The notes under the pieces were generated by a model, which worked only from the letters and a program-made list of their open reading frames with translations, did not search any database and was not told the origin of the DNA. Positions 3,779-15,275 of a stretch of DNA of 20,000 bases are shown piece after piece. The DNA comes from Neophaeotheca triangularis (Eukaryota), in assembly GCA_054600435.1 (NCBI GenBank), contig BAAIJX010000080.1, positions 46,128 to 66,127 on the forward strand, given 5' to 3'. Position 1 is the stretch's first letter, and the number at the start of each line of letters is the position of its first letter. Made by a program: the position numbers and the translations under genes.

Positions 3779-4491
3779 CCTGAAAATCGTAGGAAGCGTC
3801 AAGCAGGAGTTTGGACCTGGATGAGGATGCGATGCGGATGCAGGAGCGGGAACTCGGATGGTTGCGTCTTCGACTTTGGTGGACGAGTACCGTGCGATGT
3901 ACCTAGTAGTGTTCTAACGTTACGCCTCCGTAGCACGTGCTGCGAAGTTCTTCCTTTTGAGATGATCCTCTTATACTGCGTCGCGCATTATTGCGACTTG
4001 GACACGCTGTTGAAGCAGAGCTCGAGGTAGGAGGGACGGGATGGTCACGAATAAGACGAAGGAGCTGATGCACGTCTCGCAACTAATACTAACCCAACCG
4101 CGAGTAGTAAGTATTGTTTGGAACGTAGGTAAAGAAAGGGGTCTACGTTAATACCTTAATGCCCTGGTCATGCATATTCAATGCAGGTTTGATTAGTGCT
4201 CCCGGGGTCTGCAACGGATACGAATGACCACTACTACCCGACGTTATAGGTACTGATTCCAGGCCCACCAAGACTCCGCAATCTGCACGCTTGATACACA
4301 ACCATGACTTTTCTACACGCAGGATCTGGGTCAACGAGACAGACCTTGGCACATCACCTCGAGGCCATCGTCTGAAGTATCAACCATTGTAAGAAGGGGG
4401 ACATCACGTGGAGCATCAAGAAGACAAGAGGTTTCGAGCTCCATCTTGAATGCTCCAACGGTGGAGTCGCGCCCCCCTTCAGTGCCACACA

Positions 4492-11514: not shown

Positions 11515-13941
11515 CTAAGACCCTGGACTTCCTCCTAGCCAAGCATCCAAATCCGCTTGCTCGCCCATGTTCAGCGCCGGCATCTCATAGTCATAGTCCT
11601 CGTCGATGCGCCAGAGATCGTGCTGCTGCTCGTGGTGCGACGTAATCCTGGCACCAACGGAACCCGCGAAACCGTTCTTTTCGCCGAAGTTGAAGCTTCC
11701 GTGGCAGCTGGAAGGGACGTCGAAATCGCTGGTGAAGACGCTCGAGCCGGAACTGTCGCTCGCGCCTGGCGGGCTGAAAGCGTCGCCGCCTAAGCCGGGG
11801 TTTGTGTCGATGGCGCCAAAGTTGAAGTCTGCGGCGTCTGGGGCGAAGATGTCGTAAGCTTCGTCTGGGGGGCTAGAACCACCTTCGAAAATGTTGGCGG
11901 TGGTTTGGTTTTCGTTGGCGGTGGTTGTGGCGAGTTTGGCGTGAGGGAGCGGCGGTGAAGAGTGCACGCTCAGTGCGGAAGGTGAGACACAATTGTTTGC
12001 GTTGAGCGGTGCGCTGTTGAAATCGAAAGTTGAAGGGTCTTGCGATTTGCTGTCTGCGGGTGTCTTGTGTTGAGTGGTGTTCGCTGCGGGCGAGGTGCCA
12101 CTCACCGGGGAGGTCGGTGGGGTGTCGCGCCATTGCTGCACCGTTGGGTCGAAGGAAGACTGGTCTAGCATGTCGATGAAAGCGCTTGCGTCGTAGTGGC
12201 CGCTGGTGTCTTCAGGTGTCGGCGGGAGACTGCTATGGCCTGAGCTGGAGCTAGCGTAGTGCTGCTGTTGACCTCGCTGAGAGGAATCAAGCTGTCGAGC
12301 GCGCTGCGCCTTCTCAGTCCTCTCATCTATGGTTGGGCGATCATCGCGGATCTTCCTTGGCCTGCCACGAGGTTTGCGCTCGCTTCGCGCCTTTTCAAAG
12401 CCTGGAAGGGCACCCTCACACATGCCACGCTGCCGGTGGCGCGTCAATGCGTCTTTGCGAGCAAACTTCATACCACAAACGCATTCGGCGGACTTGTCGC
12501 CGCTGTGGATCTTTGCGTGGCGCTTGAGGTCGTGTTGACGGACGAAGCGCTTGCCGCACGGATTGCAAAGGTAGGGACGGTCCCCCAAGTGAGTCTGAAT
12601 GTGAGCACGGATGTTCTCCTTACGCCCGAAAGACGAGGCGTTGCACTCAGGGTACATGCACTTCCATTTGTTGTCTTTGGGATCCTGCTCTGACATGTAA
12701 TGTTGAATTTGTTCAGAGGTAACCTCGGTCCGGACAATACTGGCGTCGATGTCGAGAGCGTCCAGTGCAGCCTGGCGAGGCGACATGGGTCTAGGCGGGC
12801 CGTTGAGGAAGAATTCTTCATCTCCATCTGCCCCAGCAGTAGCTTGGAGCAGTATGTCTTGTTGACCCATAGTCGCCTCAGGATCCTCTTCATATAGTGT
12901 TGGCATGTGGGGAGTGCTCATTTGCGGTGGCGGGGAGGAGTTCGCAACAGAAGAAGAGTATGCAGAAGATGCATAGCCTTGTCCATTCTCAACGAAGCCA
13001 TTTTGGCCAAAGTTACCCTGAGAGTGGTTGTACGACGCCTCGGTTACCTGAATAGTGGGCTCCATTCCGTACCCTGAAGGCATAGGCGCAACATCGAACT
13101 GGTAGCTTTGACTCCGGGCGTGTTTGGCATGGGGAGGGGGAGGACTGGACCACACTTTGCAATTCTGCGGCGTGTTCGGCACCGTGTGGGACTGAGGGTG
13201 TCCAGAATAGGCTGTTGGTGTTTGTGGCCTAGCAAAGCCCATCGCCTGAAGTTGCTGCATGTTCATACCCGAATTCACTGACATCTCGTCCATAGGCGGC
13301 TGAGAGTTGTCAAGGCGAGGTACGTTGATGCTGGATGTCGCGGGCAGTCCGGTCGGGTAATTCATACCAGCATGGAGATTGGGCGATGCACCGTAGGTTG
13401 CCTTGTACCACTCGATGTGATGTTGCAACTCTTGGGCCGCTCTCTCGGGGTCCGGTACAGAGACATTCGATTGATGTTGATGTTGGTGTTGGGGTGTATT
13501 TTGTTGCGGTTGTGGTTGCTGTGGTTGTTGAGACATTTGGTTTCCATCTTGTCGTCCGTTCAGTTGTTGTTGAAGATGGCTGGTGAAATCCATCGCTTGA
13601 TGGAAGCCCGGCTGGGCCATGGGTCTGTGCTGCTGCGCTGCTTGCACGAAATGCTGTGGGTTTGATTGTTGTAGTCCTGTGTTAGTATCCATACTTACCA
13701 TTGGCGACTGTAAATGTTGCTGGGGTTCCTGCTGATATTGAACCGGACGAAAGCCGTTGGGCGTCGTCATGCGGGTCAGACTTTGGTCGAGACTGAGACC
13801 GCGACGATGGCCGTGGTGGGATTGAGGTCGTCGGGGGTTCGTAGGAAGGGGAGTCGCCAGTATTGGAACTTCGAGCGATTGCTGACGGCGGTGTTGTTGG
13901 CGCCGCTTCTGGATGCTCGAATGGGGGTTGTTGGACAGCAT
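11515..13941 (-). CDS. ACE2: Ace2/Swi5-family C2H2 zinc-finger transcription factor, 808 aa
   Basis: Finger array CMYPEC..FGRKENIRAHIQTHLGDRPYLCNPCGKRFVRQHDLKRHAKIH..C.CGMKFARKDALTRHRQRGMC is diagnostic of Swi5/Ace2. It is followed by AT-hook-like KPRGRPRK. The N-terminus is Q-rich with HxRxxS sites. ATG at 13941 has a strong context (aaaATG). Confidence 0.9.
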   Translation of the reverse strand: MLSNNPHSSIQKRRQQHRRQQSLEVPILATPLPTNPRRPQSHHGHRRGLSLDQSLTRMTTPNGFRPVQYQQEPQQHLQSPMVSMDTNTGLQQSNPQHFVQAAQQHRPMAQPGFHQAMDFTSHLQQQLNGRQDGNQMSQQPQQPQPQQNTPQHQHQHQSNVSVPDPERAAQELQHHIEWYKATYGASPNLHAGMNYPTGLPATSSINVPRLDNSQPPMDEMSVNSGMNMQQLQAMGFARPQTPTAYSGHPQSHTVPNTPQNCKVWSSPPPPHAKHARSQSYQFDVAPMPSGYGMEPTIQVTEASYNHSQGNFGQNGFVENGQGYASSAYSSSVANSSPPPQMSTPHMPTLYEEDPEATMGQQDILLQATAGADGDEEFFLNGPPRPMSPRQAALDALDIDASIVRTEVTSEQIQHYMSEQDPKDNKWKCMYPECNASSFGRKENIRAHIQTHLGDRPYLCNPCGKRFVRQHDLKRHAKIHSGDKSAECVCGMKFARKDALTRHRQRGMCEGALPGFEKARSERKPRGRPRKIRDDRPTIDERTEKAQRARQLDSSQRGQQQHYASSSSGHSSLPPTPEDTSGHYDASAFIDMLDQSSFDPTVQQWRDTPPTSPVSGTSPAANTTQHKTPADSKSQDPSTFDFNSAPLNANNCVSPSALSVHSSPPLPHAKLATTTANENQTTANIFEGGSSPPDEAYDIFAPDAADFNFGAIDTNPGLGGDAFSPPGASDSSGSSVFTSDFDVPSSCHGSFNFGEKNGFAGSVGARITSHHEQQHDLWRIDEDYDYEMPALNMGEQADLDAWLGGSPGS

Positions 13942-14069
13942 TTTCGTTTTGAGTGATCGGCTCTTCACACGAGTGTATGAATGCTAGAGATCACTTGTGG
14001 CAAGCTGAGTCCGGGGATGTGTTGTCGATGTACGAAGAGCAAGTCAATGCCTCCGCTTTGGATCCGGTA

Positions 14070-14124
14070 CTGTGCAGGCGGTCAGCGGTGGTGCCTCCCG
14101 AGATATGCTTCTCATTCAACGTAC
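14070..14124 (-). other. 55-nt intron in the 5'UTR of the Ace2/Swi5 gene
   Basis: Minus strand reads GAG|GTACGT (14124) ... GCTGAC branch (14086-14081) ... CACAG (ends 14070). Size is canonical. Splicing removes the only upstream AUG between 14124 and the start codon. Confidence 0.75.
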
Positions 14125-14448
14125 CTCACGCAGTGCAAGCCGCGCTCGCCGGGCGCGTTGTGTTCGTTTAGCTACACCAGTAGCGACAAGCCAATGTCTG
14201 TCACGAGGATGGGATCAAGTCGGCCTTCAGGCCTCGGAGCTGGAGGCGTTGGTAGAAGTTGCGGCCGGCGAACTTGTGTCTCGAGGGTAGGTAGGCAGTG
14301 ATAGGAGGTGTCTTTGCGGTTGTGAGAGGTTTAATGTGTGTGTGGTATGTTTGAGGTTTGAGGTGTAGTCTTTCGAAAAGAAAGAGGCTGGGATGAAGCG
14401 GCCTTGAGTGAAGGATGAAAGTCTGGCGATGTCAATGTTGATCTGTAG

Positions 14449-15275
<827 letters not shown>

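Follow-up and report, generated by a model that had tools for sequence, protein, structure and literature searches.

A conserved splice-signal element within a predicted long-range RNA fold of fungal ace2/swi5-type genes suggests an RNA-level switch

Introduction

Why should an open reading frame carry, within 22 nucleotides (nt), every signal of a spliceosomal intron? The question is raised by a 20,000-nt stretch of the Neophaeotheca triangularis genome (contig BAAIJX010000080.1 of assembly GCA_054600435.1, positions 46,128 to 66,127 of the forward strand; hereafter the window), whose minus strand encodes an ace2/swi5-type C2H2 transcription factor. From 13698 to 13677 on the minus strand, its open frame of 808 codons reads ATG/GTAAGT-ATGGA-TACTAAC-A-CAG/G (slashes mark the would-be splice sites; peptide M-VSMDTNTG), that is, a consensus donor (D), a branch point (BP1) with its branch A at 13682, position 17 of the 22-nt element, and an acceptor (AG1). 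Ace2/Swi5 controls cell separation in yeasts. For C. albicans, this role of Ace2 is described in PMC4398349.

A preliminary description had drawn attention to this pattern and had offered two explanations. Either BP1 and AG1 form a distal 3′ splice site for the donor of an intron in the 5′ untranslated region (5′UTR), yielding a short protein without the kinase-regulated module, or the 22 nt are a poison micro-intron or a spliceosome-stalling element that tunes mRNA level. Re-reading of the minus strand reproduced the pattern, which is the sole compact donor–branch–acceptor match on either strand of the window (gaps of up to 20 and 8 nt), where TACTAAC occurs three times. The evidence below argues for a real, deeply conserved and apparently undescribed RNA element, whose function we infer from sequence; the conserved element and a buried start codon together suggest an undescribed RNA-level on/off switch.

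Results

Given the peptide and the codon usage of the gene, the consensus spelling has a chance probability of about 0.002, or 0.0006 if the T of TACTAAC is counted. When the whole gene was recoded synonymously 5000 times, the compact pattern turned up somewhere in 33 versions. For comparison across species, metagenome contigs were scanned with an N-terminal alignment using the search patterns HRRQ and HRRG rather than the element, which gave 80 loci. Removal of 7 unanchored loci, 22 duplicates in the region and one mis-anchored locus (L079) left 50 loci, which with the window were reduced to 32 non-redundant Pezizomycotina sequences at 85% identity. Their best hits lie near Leotiomycetes, Sordariomycetes, Dothideomycetes, Xylona, Lambiella and Aspergillus.

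The donor is kept in 27 of the 32 sequences. In all 27 the Val codon is GTA, never GTT; the background share of GTA, taken from the zinc-finger region in 16 of the loci, is 12%. The codon that follows is AGT (22), AGC (3), GGT (1) or CGG (1), never TCN, and the base preceding the donor is G in 22. At the branch point, the Thr codon is ACT in 29 of 31 sequences as tallied (background 18%), the exceptions being L053 and L056, the latter mis-anchored on an upstream TN (its true site reads ACT AAC CTA GGA). In 30 of 31, A is the last base of the codon preceding Gly. Equally conserved control motifs, HRRQxS and HRRGxSLD, use four to six Arg codons and all four Gly codons, with uneven use at one Ser, which is TCG in 25 of 32. 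Residues may also change while the splice consensus stays, as in L070 (ACTGAC-ATAG, encoding TD-I-V), L062 (GTAGGT with TCAG) and L073 (GTCGGT); at the protein level, TN-x-G is found in 113 of 149 anchored homologues. Codons 3′ of AG1 are fixed as well, namely RCG CAG CAG, CCG GGC and CAG CAT. Free synonymous variation among orthologues, which the preliminary description had named as grounds for abandoning its proposal, was thus not found in the 32 sequences; the codons are strongly constrained. The spelling of the element across orthologues is not due to chance, and these comparisons show donor, branch point and AG to be fixed at the DNA level across several fungal classes.

The Aspergillus-like locus L053 no longer has a donor or branch consensus, and its exon-1 arm of the fold described below is degenerate; the A. 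clavatus protein P0236 lacks the RE.QQQ..RPG stretch, and the element may be gone in Eurotiales. Several homologues (P0022, P0024, P0027, P0088, P0095 and others) have Ala-Arg or Ala-Ser in place of Val-Ser, which would fit GC donors, an observation at the protein level only. The linker from AG1 to the next in-frame acceptor, AG2 (13676–13657 on the minus strand and its equivalents), is A/C-rich and U-poor with codons mostly ending in A or G; the two bases after AG1 are usually GA, and the helices do not account for the linker composition. An acceptor-like word, CAG/GA (Gln-Asp/Glu), recurs 9–30 nt before D in most loci with no evident branch point.

All three signals conform to U2-type consensus; their spacing is unworkable. 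The distance from D to the branch A is 17 nt in the window and 11–26 nt in orthologues, and from D to AG1 it is 16–31 nt (39 nt where AG1 is lost). In the real 5′UTR introns of the same loci, donor and branch are at least 39 nt apart (28 measured), and the shortest real introns in these loci span 43–49 nt. A working donor–branch minimum of about 50 nt in human extracts is given in PMC6692369, which names α-tropomyosin as an instance of short spacing that enforces exclusive splicing. The RNA data were assembled contigs from four runs, two of which (X3 and X5) do not cover the element; the X1 and X2 contigs derive from one sample at a depth of about 5, and such contigs drop rare forms. The X1 contig skips 14124–14070 and then runs ungapped from 14069 to 13488 through the element, while the X2 contig is ungapped from 14071 to 13477 with a 15-nt loose end matching exon 1. 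The 5′UTR intron 14124–14070 is therefore real. Because the D-to-branch spacing is so short, and because the RNA contigs keep the element while removing the 5′UTR intron, the 22-nt element is not an ordinary intron. Relative to the window, the RNA contigs of X1 and X2 show one difference at 13797 (Leu49 to Ile in HRRGLS) and a further five in the 3′ part (11993–12137), consistent with another allele or strain; none of these differences lies inside the 22 nt.

The same evidence bears on the poison micro-intron, in which occasional excision of the 16–31 nt from D to AG1 would shift the frame and send the mRNA to nonsense-mediated decay. The predicted frameshift holds, with 81 native and 38 new residues before a stop in the window (a 119-aa product); the D–AG1 length is 1 mod 3 in most loci, so that excision shifts the frame there too, all three signals are consensus, and one database model, P0166 (Bionectria), runs on in the shifted frame. 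Against it stand a donor–branch distance of 11–26 nt, to be set against the at least 39 nt of real 5′UTR introns and the human minimum (PMC6692369), the dispensability of D while BP1 stays, and the RNA contigs, which retain the element with no 22-nt gap. Neither shifted-frame nor back-splice peptides occur among 13 short homologous proteins, in a protein set whose 90% clustering can hide such forms. We therefore regard excision of the micro-intron, as the preliminary description had it, as highly improbable; as a stalling or decoy element, its second explanation may still hold. Dual coding in the shifted frame after AG1 was likewise rejected, as this frame closes after one codon in 5 loci and otherwise runs for up to about 116 codons.

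Could D instead serve a longer intron? Joined to AG2, it would define a short, in-frame and usually retained intron (13698–13654, 45 nt), whose removal would delete 15 linker residues and half of the 3′ arm of helix P5, freeing the AUG. This stretch is in frame, stop-free and 36–54 nt long in 25 of 26 sequences, the Gln codon at AG2 is CAG in 27 of 32, and about 20 of 122 database models lack exactly that stretch. However, the only conserved branch lies 11–26 nt from D and is followed by the earlier AG1, which leaves this intron no usable branch; real introns in these loci measure at least 43 nt; and pairing with ATG CTG already accounts for the CAG CAT at AG2. The models are automatic, and three of them (P0313, P0315 and P0316) pick a different, later AG. 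No such intron is seen in the RNA contigs or in loci L067/L068 (see below), and we consider this reading quite unlikely. Database models with the D–AG2 gap, a later AG or a shifted frame are treated here as gene-prediction products. Joining of D to the next natural acceptor, an in-frame skip, was also rejected: of 41 loci examined for a downstream intron, 20 had no anchor and 7 no intron found, and in all 14 where one was found it is of phase 1; the window has none.

D can be lost while ACTAAC and the AG persist, as in L016/L018, L023, L056 and L079, and by best hits this probably happened separately at least three times. BP1 must therefore have a partner or role independent of D. Upstream, a single conserved donor was found, U of the 5′UTR intron. 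Of 48 distinct sequences in which the start codon was located, 45 keep U together with its fixed flanking exon sequence, and U is functional, as the 14069/14125 joint attests. Recomputed coordinates confirm the arithmetic of the preliminary description, in which joining the donor at 14124 to 13677 removes 448 nt and leaves Met108 (13620) as the first AUG, in frame. All signals are kept in 26 of 28 representatives examined, where exon 2, from the 5′UTR acceptor to D, is 253–412 nt long; the branch is lost in L053 and L076. The 5′UTR intron itself contains an ATG in 22 of 29 sequences (a count with no chance control), and that in the window, at 14115, opens a 23-codon frame, so that intron retention would add an upstream open reading frame.

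The constrained codons downstream of AG1 are complementary to the leader. The last 30 nt of exon 1 are predicted to pair with codons 102–112 (helices P1 and P2), the exon 1/exon 2 junction with a site before the ATG (P3), a further site before the ATG with codons 99–101 (P4), and ATG CTG with CAG CAT (P5). On a plain MAFFT alignment of 29 sequences, from which the helices had also been read, pairing is seen in 91.6% of cells, against 33–42% in slid controls. Two-sided changes affect 10 of 39 pairs, compared with 3.4 ± 1.3 in shuffles, none of 500 of which reaches 10. Such compensatory changes, as expected of a cis-regulatory RNA structure, are found in P1 (G-C to U-A in L016 and to A-U in L041, at a synonymous Gly position), in P3 (G-C to A-U in L070 and L076, U-A to C-G in the window) and in P4 (L041 and L062). 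The best coding-region partner of the exon-1 arm is the 3′ arm in 23 of 29 sequences, and in all 29 the native codons pair more strongly than their synonymous recodings do on average. The AUG has a mean pairing probability of 0.86, against 0.52 overall (25 sequences), with CAGCAU as its partner in 21 of the 25. In the window, the pre-mRNA fold has z = −3.3, with P1 and P2 present in both the minimum free energy and centroid structures. These data support a model in which the element lies within a five-helix RNA fold, conserved and in part covarying, by which the leader is tied to the coding region and the AUG is buried. P1 and P2 would close a U–AG1 loop of 329–529 nt, the P2 arm beginning 15–40 nt after AG1.

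Several other explanations of the conserved leader sequence were dropped. A conserved upstream reading frame or N-terminal extension ('RTPRAF') before the ATG does not fit, as the distance from the exon junction to the ATG occurs in all three phases and the letters are those of the P3 and P4 arms. The Ssd1-type motif CNYUCNYU gave no conserved hit in the 29 sequences. Rfam returned no match at the gathering score for the window and five loci, and a thiamine pyrophosphate (TPP) riboswitch was rejected on this count.

We tentatively propose the following mechanism. In the normal route, the 5′UTR intron 14124–14070 is removed and the element translated through. The five helices would connect codons 96–112 with the leader and the last part of exon 1, bury the AUG and, through P1/P2, close the 329–529 nt loop so as to bring U within 15–40 nt of AG1. 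D, too near BP1 to splice with it, would act as a guard: U1 binding at D, or a weak fold-back of D on BP1, would mask BP1 and define exon 2, leaving the proximal acceptor as the default choice. Splicing to the distal site would remove the exon that carries the start codon and two HxRxxS motifs, lowering Ace2 output in most species; in this species, translation from Met108 could in addition give a protein of 701 aa. The fold would probably also hold back initiation at the buried AUG in the normal mRNA. That BP1/AG1 is a distal acceptor for U, guarded by a D placed too close to it, is the reading we favour, as a serious possibility that still falls somewhat short of probable.

The distal 3′ splice site of the preliminary description thus survives as regards the sites, through the conserved and used U, the branch and AG kept without D, and the helices; its protein half, the short form from Met108, finds no support as a general rule. 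Only 2 of 39 close homologues have Met108, and in 20 of 28 sequences the skip would leave an out-of-frame AUG as the first one. The eight in-frame cases include all five Dothideomycete-like sequences (L052, L064, L071, L080 and the window). Because the next AUG is mostly out of frame, the skip would be mostly an off-switch; the conserved outcome is inferred to be loss of output, with a short protein possible in this lineage only. A database protein that starts at Met108 (P0038) has no visible basis and was not counted as evidence. Nor would the skip remove the kinase module whole, as had been supposed: the first two HxRxxS motifs, which we take to be consensus sites of the NDR kinase (Cbk1/COT-1), would be dropped, but a short form would keep the third, HARSQS at residue 274.

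A number of observations weigh against the proposed switch. The X1 and X2 contigs, at a depth of about 5, show no joint at 13698, 13677 or 13654; in these shallow contigs there is no U-to-AG1 junction (14125>13676), no 22-nt gap (13699>13676) and no back-splice joint. In loci L067/L068, exon 1 is joined to exon 2 and an unbroken 808-codon frame runs through the zinc fingers with the element retained; they are uninterrupted where many Sordariomycete-like loci carry a further intron, and look like mature, fully spliced mRNA. From these loci and the X1/X2 contigs, we conclude that the main mRNA retains the element. An exact Leotiomycete-type U–AG1 junction 17-mer was found in none of the 80 loci, a weak test because the loci were picked by motifs that the skip removes. 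As to the fold, relatedness is not accounted for in the shuffle control, and the sequences tested are those from which the structure was read; P2 and P5 are conserved with no two-sided change in the 29 sequences, and the window has an A:C mismatch in P2. Just 7 of 29 sequences have native codons that pair better than 95% of their synonymous recodings, and in just 19 of 29 does the cognate arm pair exceed the average over non-cognate pairs. L032/L057 lack AG1, L021/L050 have it in a different phase, and L076 retains most of the structure with neither donor nor branch point. Finally, D and BP1 are complementary and pair together in many folds, and part of their conservation could therefore be structural.

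Taken to its end, this last point would leave a purely structural or protein constraint, with a D–BP1 hairpin (GGUAAGU with ACUAACC, central A:A mismatch) and an incidental likeness to splice signals; the Val-Ser and Thr-Asn-x-Gly residues are indeed conserved. The isolated segment, however, folds with only 0 to −6 kcal/mol and often otherwise, its loop length is 0 in two loci, and no two-sided change is seen in 28 sequences. Val is GTA in 27 of 27 cases, though GTT would pair better, and ACTAAC with its AG persists where the partner strand is gone, the AG being left unexplained. We regard a purely structural or protein-level cause as improbable.

The retention seen in all RNA evidence would also suit a non-catalytic decoy, in which D, BP1 and AG1 bind U1, the branch-point protein and U2AF but cannot mature, giving no alternative product. 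The mRNA would be held in the nucleus, or splicing of the 5′UTR intron tuned, while the helices act separately on translation via the buried AUG. That the first AG is found in more than one phase, that no outcome has a conserved protein product and that P5 covers the AUG all accord with this. The branch and AG kept without D, and the helices that place U beside them, read more simply as a used acceptor, and a decoy seems to us unlikely, if still worth entertaining.

A further extension gives the pre-mRNA two fates, which would be conserved across several Pezizomycotina classes: either the 5′UTR intron is removed to yield the locked mRNA, or the helices drive removal of the start-codon exon as a circle (371 nt here). 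U would join AG1 and D would be joined to the 5′UTR acceptor through the branch, so that the 11–26 nt gap falls within an intron of normal size. Such a route would require all four splice signals as well as the helices, and a regulator of cell division would be switched off by excising its own start codon as a circle. The required layout, an acceptor–donor exon with a downstream skip acceptor, is present in 26 of 28 representatives. Circle length mod 3 is 0, 1 and 2 in 7, 9 and 10 of 26 sequences; a conserved circle-encoded protein is thus not supported, as length and frame vary, and a circle would therefore be a by-product or a non-coding regulator. D is lost in several lineages, so a circle is not essential. 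Published circular RNA lists of T. rubrum carry no Swi5/Ace2 label in 12 of 14 files, which is uninformative. We regard the circle as rather unlikely.

The features of the locus are collected in Table 1. The protein is assigned to the Ace2/Swi5 class by its C-terminal C2H2 fingers (zf-C2H2 at residues 445–479 of 808) and by homologues whose database labels read SWI5, metallothionein expression activator or ACE2-like; its named close relatives are Dothideomycetes, e.g., Friedmanniomyces, Teratosphaeria and Cercospora. A PDB sequence search with the protein found generic zinc fingers only. Several UniRef clusters of the family (P0047, P0055, P0166 and others) are labelled pacC/RIM101, probably wrongly. 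Adjacent to ace2 and head to head with it lies what we take from its translation to be a ubiquitin-S27a-like fusion gene (14693–15200, plus strand), separated by about 430 nt from the RNA contig at its 5′ end. Among 19 loci with at least 1500 nt upstream, 6 (L048, L064, L070, L071, L076 and L080) carry such a homologue on the ace2 contig and one has a presumably DIM1-like gene there. Elsewhere in the window, at 4087–4112 on the plus strand between two minus-strand genes, TACTAAC is followed 20 nt on by GTAAGT, with the branch before the donor.

Table 1. Features of the ace2 locus (window coordinates)
Feature	Position	Strand	Basis
ace2/swi5-type C2H2 transcription factor coding sequence, 808 aa, no internal intron needed	11515..13941	-	open reading frame, homologue names, zf-C2H2
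Non-coding exon 1, minimum extent	14125..14258	-	contig of run X1
Helix P1 5′ arm, GCCCGG	14149..14154	-	pairing conservation
Helix P2 5′ arm, stops 3 nt short of the 5′UTR donor	14128..14138	-	pairing conservation
5′UTR intron, 55 nt, GTACGT..GCTGAC..CAG; donor is U	14070..14124	-	spliced in RNA contig, position conserved
Exon 2, 371 nt: remaining 5′UTR, start codon and codons 1-81	13699..14069	-	sequence; would be dropped or circularised on U-to-AG1 joining
Helix P3 3′ arm; 5′ arm is the exon 1/exon 2 junction, 14127-14125 and 14069-14063	14007..14016	-	two-sided changes, one in the window
Helix P4 5′ arm	13997..14005	-	folding and alignment
Start codon ATG CTG, helix P5 5′ arm	13936..13941	-	mean pairing probability 0.86, n=25
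First HxRxxS motif, HRRQQS	13876..13893	-	sequence
Second HxRxxS motif, HRRGLS	13792..13809	-	sequence
Internal donor D, GTAAGT, Val-Ser codons	13693..13698	-	sequence, codon fixation
Branch point BP1, TACTAAC, branch A 13682, Thr-Asn codons	13681..13687	-	sequence, codon fixation
Acceptor AG1, CAG before G, phase 1	13677..13679	-	sequence, codon fixation
CAG CAT (Gln-His), helix P5 3′ arm; contains in-frame acceptor AG2 at 13654, 45 nt from D	13651..13656	-	folding; AG2 chosen by many automatic gene models
Helix P4 3′ arm	13640..13647	-	folding and alignment
Helix P2 3′ arm, Ala/Thr-Gln-Gln-Gln codons RCG CAG CAG CA	13628..13638	-	codon fixation, alignment
Met108, first AUG after U-to-AG1 join in this species; not conserved	13618..13620	-	sequence, homologues
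Helix P1 3′ arm, Pro-Gly codons CCG GGC	13606..13611	-	codon fixation, alignment
Third HxRxxS motif, HARSQS, residue 274, present in any short form	13105..13122	-	sequence

Discussion

Dothideomycete-, Leotiomycete- and Sordariomycete-like sequences, along with further lineages, retain both the element and its fold, which show that what looks like a conserved protein motif, VS..TN.G..QH..RE.QQQ..RPG, is largely an RNA signal. A search of mostly open-access literature turned up no account of how ace2/swi5 of filamentous fungi is spliced or folds as RNA, and 'Ace2' is absent from the main text of two fungal structured-RNA screens (PMC5640933, PMC8216456). Its loss at the Aspergillus-like locus may be why the element has been overlooked. 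Automatic gene models disagree here because of the splice-signal element. If the proposed switch is true, it could time or damp cell separation in septate hyphae at the level of RNA; that its trigger is cell-cycle control is a guess from the gene family.

The arrangement shares individual features with several known systems. In PTC7, an in-frame intron is retained and its splice signals lie inside translated, stop-free sequence, as they do in ace2. Unlike PTC7, the ace2 spacing is below the working minimum of the same genes and no spliced form was found. In yeast HAC1, whose intron is non-spliceosomal, pairing between 5′UTR and intron blocks translation. The ace2 leader similarly takes part in long-range pairing that could restrain initiation, but its partner is coding sequence and its signals are spliceosomal.

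The S. pombe mrps16 circular RNA, which arises from an exon-containing lariat (PMC4479058), shares with ace2 the order donor, acceptor, exon, donor, branch and acceptor, and in both cases skipping would leave the exon in the lariat with both ends available for back-splicing. The two introns flanking the mrps16 exon are normal, however, whereas the second ace2 intron is not excisable alone and its exon holds the start codon. In C. albicans, Ace2L and Ace2S are likewise N-terminally different forms from an Ace2 gene tied to the NDR kinase Cbk1 (PMC4398349). There, alternative initiation adds an N-terminal extension, while the conserved feature described here acts at the RNA level and the start of the short form is not conserved.

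The pre-mRNA of N. crassa NCU01977, a gene of another filamentous fungus, contains a TPP riboswitch (PMC3597705) that also involves conserved long-distance pairing beside a 5′ splice site; the span is about 530 nt, compared with 329–529 nt in ace2. Unlike NCU01977, ace2 has no TPP aptamer or Rfam family, its partner arm is coding, the choice would lie between acceptors and the AUG is buried. In the mutually exclusive exons of α-tropomyosin (PMC6692369), as in ace2, a donor lies too near a downstream branch for the two to splice together; in contrast to that system, the ace2 stretch between the sites spans 16–31 nt, stays in the mRNA and is read in frame, and downstream of D there is no natural acceptor in frame with it. 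By analogy, the ace2 element may work like the long-range pairing of a TPP riboswitch (PMC3597705) combined with steric exclusion of the tropomyosin type.

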